64,000 nucleotides of DNA from Thunnus thynnus. Lineage: Eukaryota. The notes beneath the pieces are model-generated. The model saw only the letters and a list, made by a program, of their open reading frames with translations, was not told where the DNA came from and made no database searches. The first letter of the stretch is position 1. Every line of letters starts with the position of its first letter. Positions 8,301 to 62,625 of this stretch are shown here, piece by piece. Both the position numbers and the translations under genes were made by a program. Location: positions 28,314,551 through 28,378,550 of the forward strand of contig NC_089527.1 of the NCBI RefSeq assembly GCF_963924715.1. The letters run 5' to 3'.

Positions 8301-10009
8301 GTAATTAACTTTGTTCAACCCTGAAAATTGCCACTAAAATGATCCTGAAACAAATGTTTCCACATCACTCTGAGGTAATTCATCACTTGACCAGGATTAG
8401 CTTCCAAACTACTTGTGATGTCACAAATCATGCTGGTAAACTCAGATTTAAGGTGAGAAGGTGAGCACAGAGAGACTTTCCCCTTCAGATGATGAATGTG
8501 AAAACAAACTGCACATACATCATTCAGCACAGTAAAGCACAGACAGTACAGTTAGTACAGTAGACGTCTAGAAAAGTTTTACTTTTTAACCAAATATACA
8601 AAAGATCTGACTTCAAAGTGAACATAAAGTGGCTTGTATATCATTAGTTATATCATAAATTCAAGCACCTTATTTGATCCGAGTCATCAGGACATAAGTA
8701 GTGAAGTATCCTACTTCAGTATCTCGGAGTTAACTACTTACTTAACTATTTGTGTTTTAAGACAGCATCCCCAAATGTTAAGGTGCCTTACAGGTTGTCA
8801 TATTTTTGGTCTGTAGCCAAAAATCACATAACAAATTATGCTGATTGAAAACTAGTTTTTATGGAAGATCAATATGCTGTGTATCAATATGTTGTGTACA
8901 ATAACAAAACTATGATTGTAGTGGGTAGTTTAATATATTTAAAGAAATAGCTAAGATATTTTTATTTTATTTAAAACAAAGAATTACTGATCTAGTGTAT
9001 ACTTTTATTGAAGAAGGATGCTTCCTCTTCCACTGGTCCAACGTTACTCAGAAGTACTTCAGACAATCTCTGGTTGTCTTATTCAAAACAAAGCACTCAC
9101 AAGTCCAGTTTTAGAGACCTGCACCTGACTTGACCTGTTAATGTAACATGAAACCTGACCTATAATCAACAGACTACACACTCAGTTAACAACACTTTAT
9201 TTGTTACTTTCACATGACCAAAAAACAAGTCAGGTTAGCCTTAACTAGGATAAACAGATGTTTGCTTAATAACACAAAGATCCCTGGTTTAACTGTAGGC
9301 TGATTTAAAGTTTTATAAAAGGATTAAAGGATTGATGATTTTTTGAGCAACCTGGTGCAAGACTCTGACTCAAATGTAATGTTAGTGGTGGTATTACATG
9401 AAATTTTGTTGATTTAAATTTTACTTTCATCTGGTGGTGTGAAAGCTGAGCTTTGTGAGATCCTTGTATGATGATTTAAAACATGTTGTGATTGGAGACA
9501 CAAAGCTTTTGCCACTCGCTTTGGAAAAACTGCTGAGAATGGTTTCAAAGCATTTTATACATTCAAAGGGAGGCATCTGCTGGCCAAACCTTGGTATTGA
9601 GCTCATGATCCAACAGTGAGTCAAACTAGCTGTCAAAGAAAGGGAGCGGGAGATTTTGAGATTTGAGATTTTGATAAATCCATGTGTTTATTTCTGTGGT
9701 GTCATCCAGTGTTAGTATCCCACCTCAAAATCTGACATGGAGACACAGAAAGAATGAGCTGAAATCAACAGTTTGATCCATTATCTTCAAATAAAAACTG
9801 ATGTCATCAAAATAATTTGAAAGATGCAATAATCACAAAAATTGTATGCATACCACAGAACTGCAGCTAAAAATCAGCACCAGAAATGCTCCATAGTTGG
9901 TAGAATATCAACAAGTCAACTCTAGTCACATGTTATGTTGTTTTAACCCTCATACTCTGGAAACAGACAGACTTGATTCTTGTCTAATTTCTAATGTTGT
10001 GTGTTACAG

Positions 10010-10152
10010 AGAAAACTTGTCCTGCAGGATGGAGGATGTTCGGCTGTTCCTGTTATTTCCTCTCCAGTGAGTCTGGTTCCTGGTCAAGAGGCAGACAGGA
10101 CTGCAGAGAGAAAGGAGCAGATCTGGTGGTTATAGACAGCACTAAAGAACAG
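10010..10152 (+). CDS. Gene A CTLD exon 1.
   Basis: Acceptor tgttacag|ag, donor cag|gtacag. Encodes (K)KTCPAGWRMFGCSCYFLSSESGSWSRGRQDCREKGADLVVIDSTKEQ, with the CPxGW and WxxxxxxC..GAxLxxIxS hallmarks of C-type lectin domains. Confidence 0.8.
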
Positions 10153-10675
10153 GTACAGAGTGTTTGTTTGTATGCTTGCAAAGAAACTGCCTAATTGCAA
10201 TCTTCCTGTACCTTGAAAAAAGCTAAAATACTTAATTATTAATTAAGTAATTAATTGATTTATATGGATCATTGGTGTTCAACACCTTAACAACAATAAT
10301 TCAAATGATTTGAATGAACTTGTGCTGCTCTGTAGCATGTTTTGCTGGTATTCTTGAATTTGCACATTTGCCTTAAAATCAAAGTATTTCATTTCATCTT
10401 TAGCAAGCTAGCTAACATTCTTTTAACCTTTCACTATGTTTTAATCAAACTCCAGAAGCAGTCACTTATACACTGTAAGTATTTAATCAATACAGATCTG
10501 TGTATCAGTTTAAGAAAAAACATGATGATGTCATTAAATATTAAAGGAGTAAAGAAGGACTGTGCAGATGAGATTCTAAACAAAACAAAAGGGCACGCCA
10601 AAAAAGTTTTTTAAAAAAATCTAAAATTTAAATTTATCAAGAAAAAAAAATATGATCTTGTTATTAGTATATTTC

Positions 10676-10676
<1 letters not shown>

Positions 10677-10748
<72 letters not shown>
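10677..10748. repeat. (AAT)n microsatellite in CTLD intron 1 of gene A.
   Basis: About 23 units. The homologous position in B and C has only a short remnant. Confidence 0.9.
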
Positions 10749-10752
<4 letters not shown>

Positions 10753-10855
10753 TAGCTTAATTCATTATTATCAAATATGTTCAGAGTAATCCTATGTAAA
10801 CTGCATATTGTTGTTATAAATAGTATGACTTTTTTCCCTTCTTGATTGAAAACAG

Positions 10856-10965
10856 ACATTCTTGACTACCTTCACTGACGAAGAAACTTGGAGTTGGATT
10901 GGTTTGACTGACAGAGACAAAGAGGGAACCTGGAAATGGATTGATGGAACACCACTGACTTCAAG
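10856..10965 (+). CDS. Gene A CTLD exon 2.
   Basis: Acceptor aaaacag|ac, donor caag|gtttgg. Encodes TFLTTFTDEETWSWIGLTDRDKEGTWKWIDGTPLTS (WIGLxD...EGxWxWxDG motif). Confidence 0.8.
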
Positions 10966-11602
10966 GTTTGGCTTCAGTTGGTTGTTTATTGACAACATAC
11001 ACAATCACTGCTGTATATTAGAGGTTGGTGATATGTATTACATCTTCTATCACAGACAATGTGAGGTGACTGGCAGTTCCAGGTTGGTCTGAAGCTTTTC
11101 TGGTTAAATCATCAGTGCAAAATGATAATTATGAGAAAAAATCAAACCAAACTACCATTTCATGGTGTATCTGAGACGGAGTTTCTGGTCCACAGTCAAG
11201 TTTTACACTTCACCAAACATAAATTATAATAGATAAAAATGTCATAAATCAGTTTACTTTTCGATTCTTGAGCAATCTGGTAGAATTCAACATCTATGGT
11301 GGAACTAAAACTTTTACACAGTACTGTAACTGATGACCAGAACACTATGGGGGTCTTTATTTATACAGGAGGATCCTTTGTTGCTATTTGATGACTGCAA
11401 ATTTACATTTAGGAAAAATACTACAGTGAACCTGCAGCACTGTTCAATTTGCTACTTTATGGCTCAAAACTATACTAAGGCACATCATGCAAGATAAAAG
11501 AAATTCCATTCTGTGATGTTTGTGAAGAAATATTATTTGTGTGAAGGACTGTGTTCATGTCAGAGATTAAGTGTCACGATTCTCTTGTTCACTGACCTGT
11601 AG

Positions 11603-11753
11603 GTACTGGGAAACAAATGAGCCTAATAATGGAGGTGTCGGTGAAGAGGACTGTGCACATATCAGGACTGGCAAGAAAACTGAAGACAACTGGAATGATC
11701 TGTCATGTGATGCTTCTCTGCGGTGGATCTGTGAGAAAAATGCTGGTGTATAA
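11603..11753 (+). CDS. Gene A CTLD exon 3 with stop. Carries an EPN Ca/sugar-site motif.
   Basis: Acceptor ctgtag|g. Encodes (R)YWETNEPNNGGVGEEDCAHIRTGKKTEDNWNDLSCDASLRWICEKNAGV* with EPN, WND and three conserved Cys. TAA at 11751-11753. Confidence 0.8.
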
Positions 11754-13105
11754 TATGTAAAAATGCTTTTTCAAAGCAAACTATGATTTTGCAAAAGGCA
11801 AATCAGTTTGTATGTGTGTGAAATTAAAACTTTTCTCTGCTGTGCTGATGACCTTTTGCTTCTGTTCTGCCTTTTTAAAGAGATTTCTATAAATTAGATG
11901 TTTACAGCTTTTGCCAGAAGAGCTTCATTAACCAATTTCCAATGTTTCAAACAACTAAAAGAAGCAGACAGATAAAACAAAACCAAACCTCTGCAAAATG
12001 CAACAGATTCATAAAAACCTTTATTTTGATTTATGTCTTAGCTAAAGATTTCATGATAGTTGAAAGTTGCAAAAAACCTGATTGAGACCATTTCTTATGA
12101 CATCCCTCATATCATAATTAAACAATGTAATATAGATTTTGTGTAATTATGTCTTATTATATCATTAAATGACGCTTTCCTGAAAATAATTTTTAAATGA
12201 AGTCTGTTCAGCAGCTGACAGATCTCTTTAGCAGAGGCCATCAGTGTTTGTGAATTTTACTTGATAATTAGTGGTTTCACTCAGGAAACACTTGCTGTTG
12301 TGAGAGAATTATCAAATTATTTTAGATGAAATGTAAACCAAAACTATTCAACAGATGAGTCAATATAAAGTCAGTCAATTACAACATATCAGCACTGTAC
12401 TGGAGTCAGACGTTTGTCATGATGTCCTTTGTAATGCTGGTAGCTGATACTGGTTGTGGCTTTTTATGTAATTATGAAAACAATTAAAATCTTTTTAAAA
12501 ATTGAATATTTTTCAGTGTCTTTATGTTTCTTTTATCATCATTAATAGTGCAGAAAAACCCTGTTCTACTGGGATGTGAGAGGTCAGCTACAGATGGGGA
12601 TTTCATTCATTCAAAACTGAACTTGGTTAAAAGATGATCTGTCTTTTCACCACACTCTCATGCTGTATTCAACAGGCACTAAGTGAAGAAAACAACTCTA
12701 ACAATGAAACAGAACATCCTGTATCTCAATCTAGACAATCTACTGGATGAGATCTGAGACTGTCTTCACCAGAAAAATAAAAGCACTGGTTGTTTGTACA
12801 AGTGACTTGAGGAAGAGTTCAGGTGGACAGGTGGGTCAGCAAACCATGTGGCTTTGACATGAGAGATGGCTGTTCTTTTGTTTACTTAACTAAAACTACT
12901 TGCTTGGAGTTGAGGAAGGATTGTCTTCATGGTTCAAAGTAACCAACGTTGACTGTTAGACAGGACCATTTGTACACCTACCATCCATCACAACCTCCAC
13001 CTCCAAGCATTAAGGTTCCCCAGAACTGTCTTTTGTGTCTATAGACCAGCTGCATGTGGACTTAATTGTCAAATGTAATATTGCGCTTTATGACACAATG
13101 TAGAT

Positions 13106-14515
13106 CAGGGGTCTCAAATTCAAATTACCTGGGGGCTGCTGGAGGCAGAATCTGGGTGAGGCTGGGCCGCATCAGGTATTCCACAAAAGCTTAGCGGGCG
13201 CAGGCTAGGATAGTAGGCGCAAAAAAGGCGACTACTACCGGGTTGTTCATTACCCGCCGTGCTTTTGTTGTTGTAAACGTCGTCATAGAAACAAGTGAAA
13301 CAAATGGCATCATAAAGAAATATCTTATAATGTTTATTGTGCAAGGCATTTACTATGGAGTAAAATGTTTTGAGGAATAAATCTCTTTCCGCAAATGATT
13401 CAGTACATTTCATTCACCCAAAAGATGTTTTCAAATAATTTGTCCATGAATGTCACATCATTGCAGAGCAAACGTGGAGAACATGAAGCCGGGACAGTGG
13501 GACACCATTATGCCATGGTTTGCACCTCCATGGCTGCAAACCATGGGATGCAGCCATGGAGGTGTTATTTATTGGCTTTTATTTCCTATAATAACTCCAT
13601 GGATGCAGCGGGCGCTGTGAAGCTAGCAGCGTTGTCAAATCAAATATGACGTGTGGCACAGCAGCATCAGCTGTACGGTGTTTTGTTACACTCTGTATTT
13701 ATGATCTCTGACGGATAAACATAAGTGTGTTCATGGAAACGCATGTATTAACTTTTAGTTCACTTCACAACGTGGCATTATGTGACAGAAATATGCACAT
13801 ACATTATTATCTGCCAGACTTATAAAGACGCAGATACACCTGGTTCTGTTTTTTTAATGTCACACACTGTGGAATCACATGCACGAGCCTCATTTGCCGT
13901 CACAGTGAGCCAAAAATGGATGTAAAGTTCTTTATACCTCCGTTTGTACGTCAACGGTTGTGTCCGTTCCGCTCATCAGACCTCAGTGAGAATTACGCAC
14001 AGGCTCTCCAACAGCTGATCATTACGCACGGCTGCTGTGGATATTTGAAACGACTTTACCCCTAATTCATCACATTTTTCTGCAAACCGTCACCACTGTT
14101 AAGTGTCAGTCATCATTATTAAACATCAGAAGAATGATAAATGATTTATTGATAGAGCTCCTGTTGAAACGGACTTTACAAAGTGCTTCAAAACAAAATG
14201 AAGTGATCGTTAACAGAGAGATGATGCTGAAATAAACAGAATGATGCTTTAATAAGGTTTAATAATTCACCTTTGAATTTTACTGAGAGCTGTTCTCAGC
14301 GCACATTCTTCCTGTATAAATAGCATAGTTGTTGTGAAACAGCCATATACCCCTGTGATTGGCAGGTTCGTTCAGCTACAGCTTGTGCAATAAAGGGACC
14401 TTCCACACACCACACAGTAAAGTGCCATTCATATAAAACTCGCGGGCCGCACTAACATTAAACTTTCATATCAAGGTGGGGGCCACAAAATATCAGCCCG
14501 AGATTGAGACCCATG
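13106..14515. mobile_element. Non-autonomous hAT-like DNA transposon, copy 1.
   Basis: Terminal inverted repeats CAGGGGTCTCAAATTC ... GATTGAGACCCATG. No transposase ORF. About 1.4 kb. Internal palindromes are present. Confidence 0.6.
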
Positions 14516-16160: not shown

Positions 16161-16471
16161 TAAGACTATTTTTATACTGCCCTCCTTGTTCTGATGGGTG
16201 TCATGTGAAATAATAAGTAACTACTAATTTGTGGTAGTACTGGCAGTACTTGTAGACTGTGAGGAATCATTAGATGAAGCATTAGTCTGGGTTTGATGAC
16301 ACAATTTTATCCTGCTCTTGGTTAAGGCTGTTTGGATTCATCCTCCATTGTATAAATTATGCACATTAGGGGTTCATGCACTGAAAACAGTTTTTGAAAC
16401 CAGATATTGACAAATAGAAGGACATAAGCTGTGTCTACTCTTTAATGTCTCTTGTTTAACATGTTTTACAG

Positions 16472-16613
16472 AGAAAACTTGTCCCGCAGGATGACGTATG
16501 TTCAGTTTTACTTGTTATCTCATCTCCACTAAATCTGGTTCTTGGAAAAAGGCAGAAAAGACTGCAGAGCCAGAGGAGCAGATCTGGTGGTCATAGACAG
16601 TTATGAAGAACAG
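16472..16613 (+). pseudogene. Gene A' pseudo CTLD exon 1.
   Basis: Homologous to 10010-10152 but TGG is changed to TGA (CPAG*RMF), there is a 1-nt deletion, and a downstream in-frame TAG. Splice sites retained. Confidence 0.7.
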
Positions 16614-17501: not shown

Positions 17502-19130
17502 TATTATATAATATATGTTATACATATTATTATTATTGGCATTAATATTAATTTTGATATCATTTTAAGAATTAAGAAACATGTAGTATTTGGTAACAGG
17601 CCGGATTTCAGTCTGTTAAGTTCAGTTCAGTTACTGAACTCTGTTCATTTCTACCGTTTTACAAGTGTGAGAATACACAGACACCTTCAGGTTCAGACCA
17701 TACACAGACATACAATTAACAATTACACTGAACCTCCTCACTCAACAACCTACTCTATTCACCTACTTCTTCTCTTTTCTTTCTATTCTCACTCTCTTGC
17801 GTTAAATCATTTTTTATTTATCATTATTATTTATTTTATTTTTTATTAACTTGTTTGCATACTCATTTATCTATCTTTTTTTATGTTTTATTCCGTTATG
17901 TTTGAGCCAACCATATCTGAATGATGGGACCACCTCGGAGTGAGCCCTGGTGACTGGGGGGTGCTTGGGGGACTGGACTGGTTTGGGACAGCTTGGAGTC
18001 AGAGGACCTGATCCCCACTAAGCCCTTCTCCAAGTAGAAAGTTGCTCCTCAGACCCAGTTAAACAGACCCCTCCTGTAGATGTGGGGCTGATCTAAAGGG
18101 GATCTGACCTACAACAGGCCAGCCACCTCTTACAGGAGTGGTGGCAGCCTACAGACAAAGAAAGCAGGGAAGAGGAGAAGCGGAAAAGAGCTAAAAAATT
18201 AAGAATAAAAAAAGAATAAAACAAGCAAACAAAATTGAAAAGAAAAGAGACAAAGAAAGGGAAAATAAATAAATACATCAAAAATTCTGTCCTGACCTGA
18301 CCTGCCCCAGATCCACCAGATGGTGCCTGTCCTCTAAGATTGTGGCTGTGTTATTTTTTTTCTTTTTCTCTTTCTTTCTTGGGGTTAATACGGTCTCTTC
18401 CTTTTTGCTCTCTTTTTGTTCTCTCTCCCCTTTTTATCTTTCACACAGAAAACCCACCCACTCACACAAACACACACACACACACACACACACCTACCTA
18501 CACCTACCTGAGTCTAGTTCTCCCCCTTGTCTTCTGCTGTCATGTGTGTCTTCATGTTGGTCACTTGTATTGCACTATAAACAAAAAAAGATCTAAGCAG
18601 ACACAAATAAGCTGATTGTGAGCAGAAAAAAGCAGTTAGCAGTTTTACACACAATGTGTGTATTGTTGGAAAAATCACCCTAACATCATATGCCGATATA
18701 AACCTATGTGTACAGTGTATAAAAATGAGTTCTACATTAAAGCTGCATTCATTGTTTGTTTTGTTATGTTTTTTGGCTACTTGGAGAGTAGAAAATACAA
18801 TAAACAGAACACAACATATTAATTGACCTTTTAAAGTTGTTATGGTGAACTTGGCCAATGGTTGCCTATTTACACTCTCAGCGTACATTGAACAGTAGAA
18901 TTTTGTTTCTGACAAATGTTACCCCCCCCCCCAAAAAAAAGTGTTTGACTTTTTTCCTGCTGTGTTATTGTCCACAGGACAACACTGGGTGTCAGCATGG
19001 AAGGTTACAAAGTTTTACAAACTTATATTGTCTCAAAATAATCACAGTGTGTTGGCACATAACCAAAAACTACAGAAGCTGTGTTTATGACTGTGTTAAG
19101 ATTGACAATCATGATTCTCATTCTCATTAA

Positions 19131-19207
19131 CTACTGGGCGATGAAGCAGCCTGATAAAGGAGATTGAGATTCGAAATGGGGAGAAGAAGACTGTGCGACA
19201 ATCAGAG
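19131..19207 (+). pseudogene. Gene A' CTLD exon 3 remnant (5' half only). Homology ends about 110 bp before the ERV LTR.
   Basis: Reads YWAMKQPDKGD*..GEEDCATIR, homologous to YWxxNQPDNG..GEEDCVHIR. Preceded by the homologous intron end (tcatgattctc...). Homology stops at about 19207. Confidence 0.6.
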
Positions 19208-19317
19208 CTTTGGTGACAACTACAATAGTAGAGCTTAAGTCCCTTAAACTTTTTCAAGTCATTATCACTACAGATGTAATCCCACCTCCGACCACAATGT
19301 GGGTTACAATGACAGGG

Positions 19318-19500
19318 CACTGTCTCCAATGAATTTTATTTTCTACATCTTCCTCTTTACAAATATAATGCTGAACTTCCTTTAACCTTAGCTGATGAGT
19401 CTGCTGATGTTGCAGAGTTGCAGTACAAGACAGGAACAATTCATCATGATCTATGTAAAATACACACACATACACAGTGTAATCATAATTTTAATAACAT
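19318..19500 (-). repeat. ERV 3' LTR (at least its U5-side part).
   Basis: Matches 27150-27335. The U3 extent is uncertain because similarity decays beyond 19500. Confidence 0.55.
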
Positions 19501-20152
19501 GTCCTTCCTGTTTGTACTCTTAAAAAATACAAAAATACAATAGTATAAAAATTTCTTGTAAGTAGAGGAAAAGAAAAATACAATTAATTCAAACGAGAAA
19601 ACCACAAATGATTCAAATGAGTATATATGAATGATTCAAATGATTAACATAATAAATGATTACATAGTTGCATGATTCTCTTGACAACAGATGTGGAAGC
19701 AAAAAAAACCTGTCAGGCAGTTCTTTATCATTCTTTTCATTTTCGTGTGTTTCTTTCGGACAGGAAAAATTCTCCTCACAACCCCGCTGCCCCAGCGGCC
19801 ATTAATCAGTGTCAATAAGTGTTTCAATCACATTTGTATGCTTAATCACATGTCACAATTTTAGAGACTTCAATTCTGACAATAGCCATTGTATATGAAC
19901 ATTTCTTATATATTCCAAAAAAAACAAAAAAACAAAACTTGTCCTCAGTCAGGCTGATCGACTCATTGGACCCTATGTGTGGACCTTCCCCTGCCTAAGG
20001 TCCTTCTACCTGATATGTGAAAGAAATAGAAAACCTATAAATGTATATACAACATACTGTCAGTCTTTTTCTCTTAAGCATACATTACATAAGAACACTA
20101 TAACTTCCCTTCAGATTTTCTATAAGTTCGTCATTATGCTGTGGAATAAAGA

Positions 20153-21017
20153 CTAAACAGGTGTCTCATCTCCAGCAAGTGTCACATCTCCAATGTGTTC
20201 ATAGATGGACTCCTCTCTTGCTTCGAGCTGAACATACTCTCCGTAGATCTCTTCATCTCCGTGTCTAACCCCGACATGTCCTCCGACCACAACATGTCTC
20301 TCGTAATCGTTATCTGTGGAGACAGGCTGATACAATAGCTGTTGCCACGTTAGTGTAGTAGTAATCAATTTTTGCATTAATTCTCTCAGACATGGAATGC
20401 AACAACAAGTAACTAGAAAGGCAAGCATGATTCCCACAGACAATATTATGGCTTTAAAGGTGTTTTCCCATTTCCTAAACATGTCCTCCAGCCACCCAGT
20501 GAAAGGATCTGTGATACCTGAATTCTCCGCAGTACCACCACGTATCTGAACATTCATATTCGTGATTGGTAACCAAGTCATCAGTAATCCTATTGCGATT
20601 CTTACTCACTGCAACTGTAGTGCCACAACCTGTCAGATCTCCCATTTCTTGTCCTCCATTCAATCCACGTGTTCTGGACAGGCAGATATAATTCCCCTTG
20701 TATGGCATAAACCATGGTGGAATAACCTTAGTGGAGACAGCTGGAAACAGATACTTGAGAGTGGTACAGTTATTTCTAGGAGAGTCAGTTTTATGTAGAC
20801 TGAGCATACACTTGAATCCTTGAAGATCATTGTGAGGATTAAGTGGAAAAGGAACTGTTCCCAATGATGGTCTTGCAGCTGCACAAACTATGCAATCAGT
20901 TGCTAGTCCGGAACCCTTAGTGGTGAAAGAAATCCATTGTAACCATAGCTGTTTCTTACTCCAGGCGAGCAAAGCTCTTCCTCCTGGAGTCTGATGAACT
21001 GGTACACGGTTTAACAC
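20153..21017 (-). pseudogene. ERV env (SU plus TM), frameshifted.
   Basis: The SU part is Cys-rich and includes a CIVC (CXXC) motif. The TM part has a membrane anchor AIILSVGIMLAFLVTCCCIPC followed by a cytoplasmic tail. Two ORFs overlap at 20475-20581. Confidence 0.6.
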
Positions 21018-21067
21018 TACAAATGTGTAATCTTCAGCAGTTGTCGTTGACTTGTTTATATTGTTTA

Positions 21068-22084
21068 TTACTTATCTGTAGGTATTGGTGCTCGTTTACA
21101 GTGTGTCAGGTGTAGCCACGTCATTCTCTCAGCTATGCGCACTGCTGTGGGTGTTGCGAGTAGCACTTGGAATGGGCCTTCCCACCTTGGAGAGCTCCAG
21201 TTCTTCCTTTTGAGCATTTTGGTGAAAACCCAGTCTCCTGGCTTCACAGGTGTCGTTTGGTCAGAGACTGGCTCTGTGGGTGAGAGGACTGTAGACATAG
21301 TCTCTTTGTTTTTCAACATCCTGCTCATATAATCTACAATCGTTTCTGTTAATTCTGTGTCATCTCCCTTTAAGTTAATCAAAGGTACTCTGTAGGGTCT
21401 ACCATATAGGATTTCAAAAGGTGATTGTCCTGTATTGTTAGGCTGTATGTGAAGGCTTAACATTACTGCTGGCAAACAGGTTATCCGTCCTTTCCCTGTG
21501 TCTTCCATGGCTTTCCTGAGTTTAGCCTTGATTGTACCATTTGCTCTTTCCACTAATCCTGCTGACTGTGGATGATAAGAACAATGATATTTCATTTTCA
21601 TGGAAAATATTTCACTTAGTTTAGCAATTACATCATTTCTGAAATGAGGTCCATTATCACTATATATAATTTCTAGAAACCCAAATCTCGGTGCAATATG
21701 TGTTACTAGAGCTTTCACTACTGTTATTGCATCACTTCTTACTGTTGAAATGACTTCAATCAATTTTGAATATAAGTCTATGATTACTAAGCAGTATTTT
21801 TTGTTTTCACATTTATTCAATTCAATGAAATCCATGCGTACTGTGTGAAATGGGATTTGTGCATTGGGTATCCTGCCTGATCTTGGTTTCAATTTACCTT
21901 GAACATTCTGTTTTCCACACACTACACATGATGCACAAAAAATTTTTGCATAATTTTGGAATCCATAGGTTGTATATATTTTGTTTATTAGTTCATACAT
22001 ACCTCCAGTTGATGTATGGATCAACCCATTCATCAATACTGCTGCAAATCGAAATAAATTCTTTGGAAGAATGTACTTTCCCAC
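21068..22084 (-). pseudogene. ERV integrase.
   Basis: A 338-aa ORF containing an HHCC-type zinc finger (..HTSTG..C..C), the catalytic-core residues (VRMDFIEL, YSDNGPHF) and a C-terminal SH3-like region. Confidence 0.8.
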
Positions 22085-22262
22085 TAGTCATTTCCATAAT
22101 TCATATTCAGATAATTTCACCCCTTTCTTTGCCCAAAACTGTCTCTTTGAGTCAGGTGAGCTATGTTTTATGTCTTTTAAAATGTCATGATCAATGTGTG
22201 AAATTTGCTCAGCTGTGTATATGTCTTGGTTTTCTTGTCTAGCAGCAGCTGCTTTCGCTTCC

Positions 22263-23208
22263 TCATCCGCCTTCCTGTGAGATTAAGTCATCTCCTGAAG
22301 TGTGAGCAGCACACTTACATACTTCTATCTGCAGTGGCAATTGTACAGCCTCTAATAAGGCTGAAATCAAATCAGTGTGTAAAATTGGCTTTCCAGTGGA
22401 CGTAATCATACCTATTTTTCCACTGTTGTGCGAAAATATGTAAGGTGTTAAGAGCATATGCACTATCAGTATAGACAGTTACTCTCTTTCCTGCTCCTAA
22501 CTTGCATGCTTCAGTTAGTGCAATCAGCTCTGCTGCTTGAGCTGAGAAATGGGGTGCAAGTGCTTTTGATCACAGTACTTTGTCTATAGTTACCACTGCA
22601 TAACCACTACTATTTGTTCCGTCCGGATTCTTTTTGCATGAGCCATCTACAAACATCACTACGTCTGGGTTTTGTAACGCCACATCAGTTAGATCTGCTC
22701 TAGGTAATACTTTTTTCGTTGCTTCAGCCACACAATCATGTTTGGTGCCTTCTGTTTCGTTTGGAAGTAGTGTTGCCGAATTTAGAGTTGTACACCTGTC
22801 AATAGTTAGGTGAGGCTGAGAGAGTAGAATGGTCATGCAGTTAAGATGTCGAGCTACAGCGTGTGACACTTTCAGTGTTAATGGATGAAATAAGATGATT
22901 GTGGCTGAACTTTGTATTGCTAGGGCTGCTGCTTGTACAGCTTGCAAACACTGCAGCATCGCTCTAGCTATTGGATCTAGTTTAGATGAATAATATGCCA
23001 CAGGTCTAAGTTTCCCTCTTAATGGCTGGGTTAACACACTGGTTATAAACCCACCTCTAGCATCACATGTTTGTACAAAAACTTTCCTATAATCTTGAAG
23101 TGCCAGTATTGCTGAACTCACAAACAGTTGTTTTATTTGCAAAAATGCATGTTCTCCCTCTGGAGTCCGTGATAACATCATTGGCGGCCATGGGTCATAG
23201 ATAAGCAT
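22263..23208 (-). pseudogene. ERV RT connection / RNase H.
   Basis: VMFVDGSC...GYAVVT at the RNase H N-terminus, with a C-terminal CKCAAHTSG. A frameshift lies between the two ORFs. Confidence 0.65.
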
Positions 23209-23400
23209 TTGAAGTTGGTGTGTTACTTCAGCATAGTTTGCAATCCACGCTCTTCAGAAGTTAGTCATCCCTAGAAATTACATAATTTGTCTTTTTGTCT
23301 GCGGTTTGGGTGCTTGTAATATTGCTGTTTTCCTATTTTCATCTAGGTGTTTGCTTTCAAAAAAGATATTAAAACCTAAATATTTCACTGTCTTTTTCCA

Positions 23401-24075
23401 TTATTGTAATTTGTTCTTGCTTACTTTATGGCCCTGTTCTGCCAAATATTTTAATAGCGCAATAGTATCAATTTTACAATCCTGTTCATTTCCTGACGCG
23501 AGTAAAATGTCATCAACATATAATAACAGTTGGCTCCCCCTTAGGGAAGTGAATTGTGCTAAGTTGGATGACATTGCCATTGAAAAGATCGTCGGGCTTT
23601 CACAATGTCCTTGTGGGAGTCTTGTGAATGTATACTTTTTACCCCTGTATTGAAATGCAAACCAAAATTGATCTTCCTTATGGAGCAGAACAGAGAAAAA
23701 TGCATTAGCTAAATCTATCACTGTTAAGTATTTAGCTTATGGATTACATTCATTTAACAGCGTGTGTGGGTCTGGAACGAGGGGAGCACGTGGTATTACT
23801 GCTTTATTTACTGCCTGTAAATCCTTTACCATCCTCCATCCTGTTGATGGGGCTGCCTTTTTTACGGGGAACAGGGGGCTATTGCATGCTGCATCTGGGC
23901 ACTCCCTGATAACTCCTACACTTTGTAGATCTTGTATTATCGGTGCAATCCCCTCTTCCGCCTCTAGTTTAAGTGGATACTGTCTCTGATATGGCCTGTA
24001 AGAGCCTTTTGGAGTTTTTTTAACTGGTTGTATTCCTTTAATAAGTCCTACATCAGCTGATCCTTTGGACCACAA
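23401..24075 (-). pseudogene. ERV reverse transcriptase.
   Basis: RQYPLKLEAEEGIAPIIQDLQSVGVIRECPDAACNSPLFPVKKAAPSTGWRMVKDLQAVNK, followed by LLYVDDILLAS (YVDD box) in the next ORF. This is MLV-like RT architecture. Confidence 0.85.
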
Positions 24076-25244
24076 CTTTTGAGGTACACTGTTTAGGTCT
24101 AACTCTTCTTTGTCAGTGTCATGGGTTCACCATCTTAGTGACTATTTTTCATGTTGTTCACCTGCCTGATCTCTAACTCTCCTGTCATTGCAGATCCTGC
24201 CACACCCATCTGCCCTGCAATCACCTCATTCCCCTCACCTGAGTTTCCACACCCATCTCCTCACCTGGATTCCATTAGGCTCATCAGTCATTCCTTATAT
24301 ATACTGGTCCATATTCACATGCTCCTTGCCAGATTGTTTGCCTAGCTTTCCAGCATTTCTATATCTACCTGTTCGCTCGCCTGTTACCTGAGATCCTGCC
24401 TGTTTCCCGGTCTTGAGATTTGCCTAGTCCTTTTGAGTTGTCTGCCTGATCTGCCTGTCTGCCTGGTTTGTGACCCCTGCTTGGTTTTTTTTTTTTGGAC
24501 TGATTAAAGAATATTGGACTCTGCTCCTGTCTCTGAGGATGTGCTTTTGGGTTCTGAGGTTCTGAGTCGTTACAGTCAGTTAGATTGAATCAGGCAGTGG
24601 TAAAGTCTAGGCTGGTTTCTCCACTGAGGTGAACCGCTTGTACCGTTTGTGTTACCCAGTTCAGGTGGGTACAGTACACATTTAATTTGGGTGCAAATAA
24701 CACTCTCTCTCTCACCTCCTGCCACTCACAGTTTGATCTCTCTATTTTTGAAACAAACTCGCCTAAATCTTTCCACTGCATCTCTTGGGTTTGTAAACAG
24801 GAAATGTGCGGTGTCAGGCTTCCTCAATAGTTTTGCCTTTGCTTTTCGGAGGCTCACCGCGCAAGCACAGTTTCCTTTTTGGTCCCAATACAGTTTGGTG
24901 ATAGTCATTTTGCAGCTGGATTCTTTAAAGAACTTTTCATGATATTCTCTGTCTTGTTCATTTTGATGTGGAAAGTACATTGTGCAATGTAACTCTTCGG
25001 GTGTGTGCGCTTCAATATTTTTTATTTCAGCTGGAGGAATGCGGTCTTTTACCAATTTCATTAGCTCCTGAGTTATACTTCCTGGCCCAGTTTGAACTAA
25101 ATCCAAACTGTACCAGTAATTTAACGTCAGTCCTTCGCACACAAATGTTTCTGTGTCGTCCTCTTCATCACTGTCGGTTGTTTTTAGGTTAACTTGGCAG
25201 GCTTTAGTACCAGAGCCATTTTGATCTGGTACTCCAGCTATCCC

Positions 25245-25420
25245 TAATTTCGTCATCAAATCTCTTCCTAAGAGCTTAACGGGACACATTTGTGATATTA
25301 CCACTGAGGCATATATGTTTTTGTTTGTTTTGGGATCTTTTTATTTTAGAAGTTCAGTTAATGGTTCAATAGTCACATGTCCTGTGGCTGATCTAACCCT
25401 TAAACCGCCGTTTGGTTTTA
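25245..25420 (-). pseudogene. ERV protease remnant.
   Basis: LCDSGAC (D-S-G active-site motif) at about 25420, and a C-terminal LLGRDLMTKLG motif at about 25277-25245. Interrupted by a stop. Confidence 0.5.
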
Positions 25421-25867
25421 GGGTAAAATCTGTCCCTGTTTAATTACGTCGCACAACTGTTCAGCAAGCTCCAGAATCACATAAGAATGTTATTGATTTA
25501 CCCCGTACCTTTAATACTATCTATGGTTTAGTCCCTTCCTGTGATAGTAAAATTTCAGCTGTTTGTAATGATAGGATTTCATCTACCTCTGTCTCCCTAT
25601 CTGCTAGTGTGTGTGTGTGTGTGTCGGTGTTCCGGAGCCAGTCATACAGAGTAGTTTCTTTCCTGTTCTTCTTGTCTGGGTTTCGCTCCTCCGCTCCCTC
25701 CTTTCCCCCGTCCTCCTCCTCTCTCGCCTCCTAATTTCTTTGGAGCTCTGCAGTCTTGTGCATACTGTCAAGGTTTGCCACAATTACATTTATATTTTTC
25801 ATTTAGCAGATGCTTTTATCCAAAGCGACGTACATATGAGACTGATACAACACAAGCAAGGATCTAG

Positions 25868-26807
25868 TCAGGAGACAACAACACAAGTAAGTGCCATAAA
25901 GCTTAAGTTTGGGCCCGATAGGATGTAGATGCCAACAGGCAGTGCAACAAGGCAATGATTAGAGTGCATAGAAGTATGTTTTTTTGTTGTTGTTGTTTTG
26001 GGGTTTTTTTGTTTTGGGTTTTGTTTTTTTTCTATCCTAGTGTCATCATTATCATGCAAGAATGTATCTACAACCTTTCTTTTCTTTTTCTTTGCTTCAA
26101 TCATTTCTTCTGCATGGGTTGCATAATCAATGGTTCTCTGCAACCCTGCATTTTTCCAGGCAATCAGATGTTTGGCCACAAATTGGCTGATTTCTGGTCT
26201 AAATCCAATCATTTTTTAATTGCATACTGTATGGACTATGTCAGTTTCTCATTCATGTGTACAGTATGTAAGTAGCTGTATACTGTACCACTTCGTGTAC
26301 TCCGAAGAAACTGAGGATCTTGTGAATGCGTCTCTCCTTTCCGTGGTGTGATGTCAACCTTCGTGAAGGGGTTGTGGGGTGAGAAGGCAGGAGGTGGAGC
26401 AGTCAGCAGTGGAGGAGGAGGAGGTGGTCAAGGTTCGGGGTAAGGCGGAGGATCCGGACGGGACCCACATGGCACGTAGCTGTCATCATTCTGCCAGTCT
26501 TGTTGTCTAGCAACCCTTTCTTCTTTCTTTTCTGAAAACCAGTTCATCTGGCTCTTGCTTCTGTCAGCCATGACTTGGCCTGTAGCAGACCTTCTTTCTT
26601 TGACTTCCCCTTTTTCCCTTTCGTTCCTTCTGAAATTGCCTTTACTAATTCTTCGCAAGCTTCTACGTCTAGTTTTCCTACAATGTCATACTTTTCCTGC
26701 CATATCTTGAGATATTTAACATAATCAGGATGGAGTAGTTTCATGCGTTTGGCGTCTCTACCATATTTCTCTGCTTGTGGTATTTTACAGCTACAACAGT
26801 TACCCAT
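25868..26807 (-). pseudogene. ERV gag (fragmented).
   Basis: Gag begins MGNCCSCK at ATG 26807-26805 (myristoylation-type N-terminus). A PPPY late-domain motif lies at about 26451-26440 in a shifted frame. Basic KKKRK tracts are present. Confidence 0.65.
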
Positions 26808-27149
26808 TGTAGAGGCCTCTTTTTTTTCTCTTTTCTTTTTTTCTCTTTTTTTGTATGTGGTAAGGCTATTTAATTTCCTTGTTTTCCCCTTAACAGCCAA
26901 CCAGTTTGTATGGAGTTCACCTGAGCAACTGGTCTGATCAGTGAAATTGTGTTCTTGTAAGGCCTTTCTCAGGTCCATTGCCTTTTGAGGACCTAACACT
27001 GAGTGCCAAAATGTTAAAAGAATTTCTTCGTAATGACCATTAAACAATAGAGACTGGAACTGAAGTATCAAAATTCAGTAGAATTTATTTTCTTGCACAA
27101 GAATGAGCGTTTCAGGATGAGATAACAAAGAAAAGATAACTTGTCTCAC

Positions 27150-27335
27150 CCTGTCTCCAACGAATTTTATTTTCTACATCTTCCTCTTTACAAAAATAAT
27201 ACTGAACTTCCTTCAACCTTATCTGATGAGTCTGCTGATGTTGCAGTACAATACAGGAACAATTCATCATGATCTATGTAAAATAGTAACACACATACAC
27301 AGTGCATTCATAACTTTTATAACAACCTAAAACCA
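27150..27335 (-). repeat. ERV 5' LTR (at least its U5-side part).
   Basis: Matches 19318-19500. The adjacent PBS-like sequence reads TGGAGACAGGGTGAGACA on the minus strand. Confidence 0.55.
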
Positions 27336-27905
27336 TTAAGACATACTTTAATGAGTAAATGAATATGCTAGAAAAGAAGGCATCAAACATGTCTGTATAA
27401 AATTCTTGTATTATCATTTTTGAAATATCATAAAAAATATAACCATATAATGTAACATTAAAAAGGAATTGATTCATTTAAAACATCTGTAGCAATCTCT
27501 CCCTCAGTGTGTGGAAAGTTTTGGCTTTTGGCCTTGCGGTTGACAGATGTGTGTGTTTGTGCAGATAGTGTTCTACCTGACCGAAGTTCCTGTTGTTTCT
27601 GAGTCTCACGTTTTACCTGCAAGACTTGTGTTTTAATGCTGTTGTTCATCATTTGTGATGAGAAAACATCGGAGAAATAAAAAGTTTGTGCCCTGGTTTT
27701 AGCCTCTCCTGCCGGCTGCTGACAGCGCTGTCAGCTGGAGAGTCACTCACACTGGACGGTAGAGGAGGAGACACAGAGGAATTAGTACACGTCAGTTTAG
27801 TCAACTTCACTGTATTTAACATCGGAGCTGAGAGCATCAGAACTCAGAGCAGGAAACACAGTCACTCTGCATCACACTACTGCTGTCCTCTGATTCCATC
27901 ATCAG

Positions 27906-27910
27906 CCAAT
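27906..27910 (+). promoter_or_regulatory. CCAAT box upstream of gene B.
   Basis: agCCAATgagg, about 95 bp upstream of the TATA box. Confidence 0.4.
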
Positions 27911-27948
27911 GAGGAAACTCTGACACTCAGTCGGCCGACCAGTGGTGT

Positions 27949-27993
27949 AACTTCATCACTCACTCACTCACTCACTCACTCACTCACTCACTC
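27949..27993. repeat. (TCAC)n microsatellite directly upstream of the gene B TATA box.
   Basis: cactcactcactcactcactcactcactcactcactca. Confidence 0.9.
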
Positions 27994-28002
27994 AACCGTG
28001 GT

Positions 28003-28009
28003 TATATAG
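28003..28009 (+). promoter_or_regulatory. TATA box of gene B.
   Basis: ggtTATATAGggc, 125 bp upstream of the first in-frame ATG (28134). A (TCAC)n tract lies immediately upstream. Confidence 0.45.
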
Positions 28010-28133
28010 GGCTGGTCTGTGGCTGGTCCAGCCAAACACTGACAGAGAGACAGTGTCATCTTCTGCAGTACATGTACAGCAGCCAGTGCTACACAGCTGT
28101 CCTTTTAGAAAATATCGTAGTTGCTTTTCAACA

Positions 28134-28179
28134 ATGGAAGAAATCTATGTTGATACCAAACATTCAACAATTCAGACAG
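28134..28179 (+). CDS. Gene B exon 1 (start codon, cytoplasmic tail).
   Basis: ATG at 28134 preceded by an in-frame TAG at 28107. Encodes MEEIYVDTKHSTIQT. Donor cag|gtaaga. Ends in phase 1. Confidence 0.6.
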
Positions 28180-28280
28180 GTAAGAATATTCAGTCAGACA
28201 GAGAGGCTGACAGACTGAGCTGTGAATAGTATGTTTTAATTGTATGATTGATTGGATTCACTGGTCTTTTCTCTGTTCAG

Positions 28281-60354: not shown

Positions 60355-62482
60355 GTGAGTGACATCTGTGGCTATACAGTACTGCACACACATTGTAGAA
60401 GAGCACTATGCTGAAAATAGAAGATGATGTGGCAATCTGTCCTATTAATTATATAAATTATCTTCAATCAACAAGTTTGTTGTAACTTGTTGATTGTAAC
60501 TGTAAAAAAACTTTGTGGATTCGTTCTTGTATTTACTCAACTTCAAACATTTTAAAATATTTTTTGTCATCAGGAAATTCCAAACACCGTCAACATTTAG
60601 CATGTTAGCATTCTAACCAATAATATCATGCTAATATGCTAAATGTGACTTTTGTAACACGCTACAGTAAGTTTAGCATGTTACAATGCAAAATGTGCCA
60701 AAATCACTTTACTTAGAGCAAACAACCACTTCTAGTGACTCATAACCAGCTTGTAATGTATTATCTCTACCTATTCCTCAAGAATTTCATTACTCCACTT
60801 AAAGCACCCAATGACCGGTTAGAGTAGCTTATAATCACATTATAATGCATTACAAAAATGATGACTATTTATGAGTACTTATAACTATAATTATACAGTG
60901 CTATAAGCAGATTATAATGCATTATGAATATGTTTATAATGCATTACAGACATTGGTGTCAAAGAAGTGTTACCCAAAAGGTTATGTGTATCACACGTAA
61001 TCAACTTTGTTCAACCCTGAAAATTGCCACTAAAATGATCTTGAAACAAAAGTTTCCACATCACTCTCAGGTAACTGCACACTTGACCAGGATTGGCTTC
61101 TAAACTACTTGTGATGTCACAGATCATGCTGGCAGGTTTCTCACCTTTAACTCAGATTTAAGGTGAGAAGCACAAACATCCAAATGAAGCAACAATAAGC
61201 AAAACACATTTTTGATTGGAGAGGGATTTTAATGTTAATAAATAAACTAGTTACATTTACAGTAGACTTTTAGAAAAGTTTTACTTCTCAACCAAATATA
61301 CAAAAGATCTTAGCCTGGACACTTTTAACATTCACACACATGCAGCTGATATCATATTTAATGCTGATGTTTTGCACAAAGTACCACATAAAATAATCAT
61401 TAATATCACTCCTTCAAGCTGATGTAAAAGTGAATGCACATAAACGCTGATGTTTGTCCAAGTGCTCATTTTTCTGATAAGTTTGTTTTTAATTATTTAT
61501 TTGACTATATAAAAAGGGGTTGTGACAGCCACACTCAAACCTCTGTCAGGCAGTGGAACAGCTGAGTGGGTGTGTCCCACGGGCTGTCATCTCGCCTCCC
61601 AACCATAGACGGTAAAAAAACATGGATGTAGTCATCATGACGTCACCGATTGGTTTGTGGACTGCCGGTTTGAAACCTTGTGTTTAGCGATTTGACACTG
61701 AGTGGTCACTTGTGGTATTGCAGCAAAAAAAAATCCCCTGCAGCCTAAAACGTATTTTCCCCATAGACCACCATTGTAAAAGAGGCAACTGTAAAACTGT
61801 TAGCAGGACACTTTGAACTGCAAACAAGGTCAATTATGTATCTTTCTATTATGAATTTTTGATCCATGGAGGTTTTTCATTTGTAAAAATTTTCTTGAGC
61901 CAAGGAAAGCCATATAAAAATCGGTGACATCGTCACAATGTAAAGTCTATATTCAGTGGGCTGCACAACATGGAAGGGTGCCATTTTTGGTCCGGTAGCT
62001 CTTATAATACATCCATGCTTGCTCCTGACTCTACTACACAGACTCGAGCTCCAAATTACTTCACACAAGCAAGATGGCAGCTCCCTGAAATGAGATATTT
62101 TGGCTTCACTTTTGCATAGAAGTAGGAAGCGGAGACACATCATAATGCAGCTTCTTTGCACTATTTTTGCTTAAGACTATTTTTATACTGCCCTCCTTGT
62201 TCTGATGGGTGTCATGTGAAATAATAAGTAACTACTAATTTGTGGTAGTACTGGCAGTACTTGTAGACTGTGAGGAATCATTAGATGAAGCATTAGTCTG
62301 GGTTTGATGACACAATTTTATCCTGCTCTTGGTTAAGGCTGTTTGGATTCATCCTCCATTGTATAAATTATGCACATTAGGGGTTCATGCACTGAAAACA
62401 GTTTTTGAAACCAGATATTGACAAAGAGAAGGACATAAGCTGTGTCTACTCTTTAATGTCTCTTGTTTAACATGTTTTACAG

Positions 62483-62625
62483 AGAAAACTTGTCCAGCAG
62501 GATGACGTATGTTCAGTTTTACTTGTTATCTCATCTCCACTAAATCTGGTTCTTGGGAAAAAGGCAGAAAAGACTGCAGAGCCAGAGGAGCAGATCTGGT
62601 GGTCATAGACAGTTATGAAGAACAG
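62483..62625 (+). pseudogene. Gene D pseudo CTLD exon 1 (TGA shared with 16472-16613).
   Basis: CPAG*RMFSFTCYLISTKSGSWEKGRKDCRARGADLVVIDSYEEQ. The same TGG-to-TGA change as in A', but without the 1-nt deletion. Confidence 0.65.

Follow-up and report, generated by a model that had tools for sequence, protein, structure and literature searches.

An old class I endogenous retrovirus in a tandem C-type-lectin array of Thunnus thynnus, with a CNPase-like domain and a probably later deletion in the neighbouring exon

A window of 64,000 nucleotides from Thunnus thynnus (contig NC_089527.1) was analysed; positions given below are counted from its first letter. The window consists of a tandem array of C-type-lectin-domain (CTLD) genes on the plus strand, in which large blocks are 93-97% identical to one another and only 17850-28230 is unique. 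Within this unique part an endogenous retrovirus (ERV) occupies 19321-27324 on the minus strand, close to a truncated exon 3 assigned to the lectin paralog A'. Our analysis suggests, with a probability of about 85%, that 19321-27324 is a single old, replication-dead class I teleost provirus (gamma/epsilon-like, related to murine leukaemia virus, MLV) and that the exon was truncated by a separate, later deletion. The order of the element is long terminal repeat (LTR), gag, protease (PR), reverse transcriptase (RT), RNase H, integrase (IN), env remnant, polypurine tract (PPT) and LTR. The features are listed in this order, followed by those of the host flank.

27152-27324, minus: 5' LTR of 173 nt, starting TGTTATAAAAG and ending TTGGAGACA, possibly reaching about 15 nt further, to about 27137; direct repeat of 19321-19499
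26808-27151, minus: leader from the 5' LTR to the gag ATG, without a recognisable tRNA primer-binding site (PBS)
25700-26807, minus: gag remnant with the start MGNCCSC (26807-26787), PPPY (26451-26440), the C-terminal end of capsid (CA) and a degraded zinc knuckle
25250-25520, minus: protease with the active site FLCDSGAC (25478; DSGA at 25478-25467), LLGRDLM (25274-25254) and in-frame stops
24620-25124, minus: CNPase-like 2H phosphoesterase domain, downstream of and fused to PR, with motif 1 LHCTMYF (24992-24972) and motif 2 PHISCL (24811-24794)
24590-24592, minus: in-frame TGA closing the proposed 'pro' frame (PR plus the CNPase-like domain), with RT next in the same original frame
24117-24574, minus: nested 458-bp insertion TGTAACG...CATGACA with TGT...ACA ends and a 5-bp duplication, CTGAC, at 24579-24575 and 24116-24112
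22266-24111, minus: RT, connection and RNase H (Pfam RVT_1, RT_RNaseH_2), interrupted by in-frame stops and a single frameshift
21068-22087, minus: integrase, an intact frame of 339 codons with CxxC (21937-21917), the DDE core and an MLV-type C-terminal domain (MLVIN_C)
20153-21067, minus: env remnant, in which surface subunit (SU) sequence with CIVC (CIVCAAARP, 20894-20868) to DTWWYCG (20526) is joined out of frame to the end of the transmembrane subunit (TM; 20524-20153)
19512-20152, minus: non-coding 3' region from the env stop to the PPT
19500-19511, minus: PPT, ACAGGAAGGACA, directly abutting the 3' LTR (TGTTAT)
19321-19499, minus: 3' LTR of 179 nt, possibly reaching about 19310
19224-19320, no strand: retained host spacer from the LTR to the deletion junction at 19223/19224, which carries 2 nt of microhomology
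19132-19221, plus: truncated CTLD exon-3 remnant, YWAMKQPDKGD(stop)DSKWGEEDCATIRALVTT, interrupted by a TGA in frame at 19165 and lacking its splice acceptor

The provirus and the state of its genes

The gag-pro-pol-env order was found on one strand, with motifs running from 26807 to 20153. Pfam matches within the provirus were RVT_1 (E 1.6e-19), RT_RNaseH_2, rve and MLVIN_C (E 1.5e-13). The nearest solved structures to its RT were those of xenotropic murine leukaemia virus-related virus (XMRV) and Moloney murine leukaemia virus (MoMLV), at E 2e-47 versus 1e-31 for foamy virus and 1e-17 for HIV. Class I identity follows from these matches taken together with the gamma-type Env of the relatives and the pair of TG...CA LTRs with its adjoining PPT. 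The best database match of IN is LOC121906607 of Thunnus maccoyii (96% identity), and the RT is 55-63% identical to that of the relative L010 (tblastn). The original prediction, made from the letters of the window, had recognised a gamma/epsilon-like ERV with env on this strand; all the motifs that it quoted are present, the Pfam domains agree, and both the RT and the IN translations match retroviral Pol (Pfam; XMRV/MoMLV RT). The provirus is one more member of a known ERV type.

Comparison with relatives revealed far heavier damage than frameshifts. In gag, about 540 bp comprising most of CA are deleted at about 26237-26241, and positions 463-1004 of the related copy L005, which keeps a CA open reading frame (ORF), have no counterpart in the window. 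The gag remnant matches P0190 and L010, and the protease matches the RVP-bearing P0190 and the PR_X ORF of L010 (tblastn). The RT retains RQYPL (23985-23971), NSPLFPVKK (23883-23857), WRMVKDL (23838-23818) and LLYVDDILL (23526-23500). In env, about 547 bp are gone at about 20525 (L005 3408-3954 is unmatched), which removed the furin site, the fusion peptide, the heptad region and CX6CC, and the N-terminal 265 or so residues are absent as well. What survives aligns with about residues 266-453 and 638-702 in the L010 Env, a protein of 742 aa (tblastn, Env alignment), the TM part comprising the membrane-proximal portion, the anchor (20452-20390) and the tail. The SU with CXXC and the membrane-anchored TM described earlier are both there, but as a remnant reduced by these deletions. 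CX6CC is present in P0208, P0210, P0212 and the Env of L010, and the TM of the closest relative, P0208, matches Pfam TLV_coat. The window env is considered to be of gamma type because the TM regions of its relatives match TLV_coat. In the Takifugu provirus L004 env is degenerate and the LTRs are full of simple repeats.

The nested insertion of 458 bp looks like the solo LTR of an unrelated element and not a part of the ERV. It is missing from the related copy L002, where the sequence is seamless (...AACTGAC/AAAGAAG), and the spacing from the extra domain to RT is short in Takifugu and in L010. The insertion is common to T. maccoyii, as are the gag and env deletions, the frameshift in the phosphoesterase domain and the stops.

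The original prediction had described ORFs riddled with frameshifts. Frameshifts and in-frame stops do occur elsewhere in the provirus, but the IN frame is open over all its 339 codons. The zinc motif of IN, reported there as HHCC, has its CxxC and is followed by the DDE core, but its first His reads N. The open frame raises the alternative that the element, or the IN frame alone, has been co-opted by the host, the frame being open in both fish and annotated as a protein (LOC121906607 in T. maccoyii, 'NYNRIN-like' in relatives). We consider co-option very unlikely. Comparison of the window with T. maccoyii gave a ratio of non-synonymous to synonymous change (dN/dS) of 0.89 (14.5 non-synonymous and 4.5 synonymous changes), which points to a frame that is evolving neutrally; the substituted zinc-motif His and the breakage of every other gene of the provirus also stand against co-option. 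At about 3% decay per lineage an open frame of 339 codons would not be improbable.

LTRs, flanks and the locus in Thunnus maccoyii

A single long direct repeat flanks the element, 27324-27152 versus 19499-19321 (TGTTAT...GGAGACA), and has the TG...CA ends of an LTR. The two copies differ by 11 substitutions and two indels, giving 88.5% identity with indels counted, 93.6% over aligned bases and a Kimura two-parameter (K2P) distance of 0.067. The repeats predicted earlier, of about 185 bp and 90-94% identity, are real and the identity over aligned bases falls in that range, but the copies measure 173 and 179 nt and the identity is lower once indels are counted. The homology of the 5' copy starts at the same base as the PPT/TG junction of the 3' copy. 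The PPT/TGTTA junction is kept in T. maccoyii and in two independent relatives, L005 (84-89% nucleotide identity) and L010 (IN 53% amino acid identity), and cleaner versions of the PPT occur as AGGAGGGAAA in T. maccoyii and L010 and as AGGGGGGAAA in L005. The 5' edge of the LTR is solid, and its 3' edge is uncertain by 0-15 nt after GGAGACA. The region 19512-20152 is viral and not host sequence, because it is 84% conserved in the independent copy L005.

Two other placements of the LTR boundaries were considered. A longer LTR, in which the 3' LTR would begin near the env stop with about 650 bp as U3 and the 5' LTR would be truncated, was rejected since the 5' repeat begins exactly at the PPT/TG junction and this junction is conserved in L005 and L010. 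In L010 (1-60), 40 nt at the start are followed by TGGTCCTTCGAGCCGGAT, which we take to be a tRNA-Tyr-like PBS, complementary to the 3' end of that tRNA. A weak look-alike, TGGTCATTACGAAG at 27033, occurs in the window leader, and nothing comparable adjoins the LTR. A U5 of about 115 nt with a Tyr-like PBS at 27033 was not adopted; in local alignment the L005 tail matched the window leader no better than shuffled sequence did. On the outer side, the 5' LTR and the next lectin gene are head-to-head, with only about 0.73 kb (27325-28053) between the LTR and the first coding exon of that gene at 28053.

The locus of T. maccoyii used for comparison was L001 (OU343201.1). L001 2152-9136 corresponds to window 29819-22854, 9177-12794 to 22855-19223 and 13563-13856 to 19224-18930, and L001 is colinear with the window over the provirus and both flanks at 97-98% identity (K2P 0.016-0.021). 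Nine of the 11 differences between the LTRs are common to both fish. The insertion long predates the split from T. maccoyii, because the LTR divergence is 3-4 times the divergence between the fish and most LTR differences are shared. This bears out the earlier view of an old insertion, which the pairwise LTR distance and the lesions shared with T. maccoyii both support. Its age is roughly 2-13 Myr, according to which fish rate is assumed. Slower percomorph rates give about 10 Myr or more. A rate of 1.46e-8 (PMC8672886) gives 2.3 Myr.

The comparison separates the insertion from the truncation of the exon. A segment of 769 bp, L001 12795-13563, is missing from the window. Its far end is the part of exon 3 that the window has lost, the 3' half, which in L001 adjoins the 5' half without a break in sequence or frame. 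The full exon of T. maccoyii reads, in gene orientation, NYWAMKQPDKGD(stop)DSKWGEEDCATIRALVTTTDNWISLSCDASMQSICEK... and lies about 0.8 kb beyond the 3' LTR. Because T. maccoyii holds the same provirus together with a complete exon 3, the insertion and the truncation are two events, of which the deletion is the younger. The simplest reading of the sequences is that the truncation was a later deletion in the window lineage only, its direction being judged from the contiguous exon of T. maccoyii. The T. maccoyii annotation places a 410-aa gene model over the whole provirus (L001 1-17192, minus), so that the ERV falls within one of the predicted introns of a lectin model that may be chimeric.

The original prediction had proposed that the ERV integrated in or beside exon 3 of A' and that an integration-linked deletion removed the rest of the exon, inactivating or helping to inactivate the gene. 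Exon-3 homology does end, at about 19222, only 98 bp from the LTR end (about 110 bp had been estimated), the missing 3' half occurs nowhere else in the window, and a deletion at integration would explain an undetectable target-site duplication (TSD). This account is contradicted by the occupied site in T. maccoyii: a check of related species had been suggested with an empty site in mind, and the site is filled there and its exon 3 complete, which means that the truncation is not found in all carriers of the ERV. The same 98 bp of host spacer lie beside the LTR in both fish; the window breakpoint is therefore not at the end of the provirus. The gene was not otherwise intact either. The in-frame TGA of exon 3 and the loss of 7 bp with the splice acceptor are both present in T. 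maccoyii, and exon 1 of A' (about 16470-16600, plus strand) reads CPAG(stop)RMF, a Trp-to-stop change shared with the sister paralog p5 (62480-62620), with an additional frameshift in A'. We consider an integration-linked deletion highly improbable.

A second alternative makes the window ancestral. The exon would then have been truncated at or before integration, and T. maccoyii would have acquired the 769 bp by insertion or gene conversion. Tandem lectin arrays do undergo conversion, and immediately upstream of the remnant the structure is not the same in the two fish. However, the segment continues the 5' half of the shared exon in frame, and it is only 82-85% identical to the exon 3 of every other available donor, a divergence of subfamily level. 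For the remaining 713 bp neither locus contains another match, and the window junction has the simple 2-nt microhomology typical of a deletion. A gain in T. maccoyii is accordingly given little credence, though slightly more than an integration-linked loss, and a later deletion in the window lineage is preferred.

The exon-3 fragment, with its shared TGA and 7-bp acceptor loss, had ceased to be functional before the two fish diverged, and it may be an orphan exon rather than a part of A'. The whole A'/p5 subfamily seems to consist of pseudogenes. A' is a pseudogene for reasons independent of the ERV, with no lesion linked to it. The two fish are not colinear upstream of window 18930: L001 from 13878 onwards matches window 47904-46189 (95%), and 17850-18930 of the window is unique sequence, about 1.1 kb long, with (CA)n near 18460-18490. 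The lectin array is rearranged upstream of the exon-3 remnant (L001 13857-17200).

Under the preferred reading, the events followed in three steps. Before the split from T. maccoyii the provirus entered, in antisense, the spacer that separates two tandem C-type-lectin genes, at a distance of about 0.8 kb on the downstream side of a CTLD exon 3. Neutral decay then produced the gag and env deletions, the phosphoesterase frameshift, the stops and the solo-LTR-like nested insertion that both fish share. In the window lineage only, the microhomology-flanked deletion of 769 bp would finally have taken spacer by the 3' LTR along with the 3' half of exon 3.

Several observations weigh against this reading. 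Of the hallmarks listed for checking in the original prediction, the LTR ends and the PPT were found, but no PBS was recognised in the window leader, where no TGG-type sequence follows GGAGACA, and no TSD of 4-6 bp was found, the flanks being AGGT upstream and GTGC downstream (TTGT under the extended-LTR reading). Since both are missing, the 3' edge of the LTR is uncertain and a rearrangement of the flank at integration is possible; a TSD is expected to be fragile at the age of the provirus. At about 175-190 nt the LTRs are unusually short for retroviral ones, and short LTRs seem to be a trait of this ERV family. The label epsilon-like rather than gamma-like comes from the literature and from structural matches to proteins of walleye dermal sarcoma virus (WDSV) and walleye epidermal hyperplasia virus (WEHV), not from a phylogeny. 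The T. maccoyii locus L001 might not be the strict orthologue but a duplicated paralog; the events would keep the same order in that case too. A' may have become a pseudogene either before or after the arrival of the ERV.

The CNPase-like domain and the proposed pro frame

Between LLGRDLM (25274) and RT (24111) lies about 0.5 kb of conserved coding sequence, in frame with PR, on which the original prediction had not remarked. In both the window and T. maccoyii a single frameshift at about 24823 splits its two H-x-T/S motifs, whereas P0121, a marine metagenome sequence of 79% identity, has both motifs in one frame. A HMMER search of 1.8 billion representatives found 79 homologues of the domain. 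In those long enough, such as the 1682-aa Gag-Pol of Takifugu rubripes, it lies between RVP and RVT_1, and homologues also occur in Labrus, Siniperca, Mastacembelus, Melanotaenia and Ophioblennius. Analysis of an alignment of 36 sequences revealed that H107 is invariant and that conservation reaches at least 90% at H46, T48 and S109; the domain thus has the two motifs, about 60-80 residues apart, that characterise 2H phosphoesterases.

Searches of Pfam and the PDB with the single domain sequence gave no match, and the domain has no Pfam model. Modelling with AlphaFold from the 36-sequence alignment reached a pLDDT of 95.1, compared with 35 for single-sequence AF2. In Foldseek all of the top 42 PDB matches of the model were to the catalytic domain of CNPase, which places CNPase nearest among 2H folds, and the best PDB match of the sequence profile was goldfish RICH, a CNPase homologue. 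An assignment to AKAP7/ns2-type phosphodiesterases was replaced after the fold searches. The model and motifs identify the domain as a CNPase-like 2H phosphoesterase, and its likely activity, judged from fold and motifs, would be hydrolysis of 2',3'-cyclic or 2'-5' phosphodiester bonds. Compared with the catalytic domain of vertebrate CNPase and goldfish RICH, the viral domain shows 13-15% identity, is shorter (about 170 versus about 210 residues), has neither the N-terminal P-loop domain nor the membrane anchor, and is located inside a retroviral polyprotein.

A CNPase is encoded by some epsilon-like ERVs of ray-finned fish (Naville & Volff 2016, PMC4977317, citing Basta et al. 2009, J Virol 83:10152), and because of this statement the domain is not new in kind. 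Those elements resemble the present one in having a teleost host, a class I Pol and an extra coding region similar to 2',3'-cyclic-nucleotide-3'-phosphodiesterase; they differ in that the window copy is defective, the comparison being made through the summary of Basta et al. 2009. Two further ERV surveys make no mention of CNPase. The best viral structural matches of the domain model in BFVD were to the polyproteins of WEHV-1 and WDSV (Q9WHI8, A4GTG3; TM-score 0.72-0.79, with 0.72-0.74 at E 2e-8 to 8e-7), with a further match to the unnamed Q2VF30. This suggests that exogenous epsilonretroviruses hold a 2H-like domain, as far as modelled structures indicate. In them, unlike here, the matching region is annotated in Env and not in Pro/Pol, and the comparison is one of structure and not of sequence. 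A literature search found no paper tying WDSV to a phosphoesterase.

The domain is closed by the in-frame TGA at 24590-24592, and the same stop is present in L002 (about 848-850) and in the intact L010 (3215-3217). Among 40 family representatives, 31 end 0-15 residues past the last conserved His of the domain. In the nearly intact L010, a single frame runs through gag, PR plus phosphoesterase, RT-RNase H and IN and is broken only by four TGA codons, and the TGA before IN is at the same place, five codons before ILPKNLF, in L010 and in the window (22087-22085). Multiple read-through and recurrent CGA-to-TGA decay are both possible explanations of this pattern. The arrangement of codons suggests a distinct 'pro' frame, PR plus phosphoesterase, with its own stop, pol being reached by a further read-through. 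In the genome of the family the first LTR is followed by gag, a stop, pro (protease plus the CNPase-like 2H phosphoesterase), another stop, pol (RT, RNase H, IN) and a gamma-type env, and then by the PPT and the second LTR. In a living virus, the phosphoesterase would be made within a Gag-Pro precursor and cut out by PR.

Relation to other retroviruses and significance

Compared with the gammaretroviruses MoMLV and XMRV, the window family is similar in its RT, in the MLV-type C-terminal domain of IN, in a gamma-type Env with CXXC in SU and CX6CC in TM (the latter seen in relatives of the window element), and in having gag and pol in one frame with a stop between them. It differs in having an additional domain, the phosphoesterase, which is followed by a second in-frame stop, in a much shorter LTR, in the fish host and in an RT identity that is only moderate. 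With the exogenous epsilonretroviruses WDSV and WEHV it shares fish hosts. Those viruses have cyclin-type accessory ORFs and long LTRs, whereas in the window element no accessory ORF of WDSV type (cyclin-like orfA and others) was detectable, with no sense ORF longer than 62 aa in 19512-20152 or the leader.

The locus itself amounts to another decayed ERV within a tandem lectin array that evolves fast. It is also a dated marker for the history of the locus in scombrids, the age of the insertion being about 3-4 times that of the divergence of the window species from T. maccoyii. An ERV next to a broken exon, when seen in a single genome, needs a second genome for its interpretation, and this locus is a clean example.

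A wider proposal is that the family represents a lineage in which a catalytically conserved phosphoesterase sits in a separate 'pro' frame bounded by two stops, RT-IN needing two read-throughs, and that the enzyme was an ancestral cyclic/2'-5' phosphodiesterase of fish retroviruses delivered in the virion. We offer it as a speculative possibility that is rather unlikely to hold in full. The searchable literature contains no characterisation of such a fish-retrovirus enzyme beyond the 2009 remark that some fish ERVs carry a CNPase gene. If the proposal is true, the phosphodiesterase could, by analogy with coronavirus ns2, rotavirus VP3 and phage Acb1, counter a host defence based on nucleotides or on RNA cleavage.

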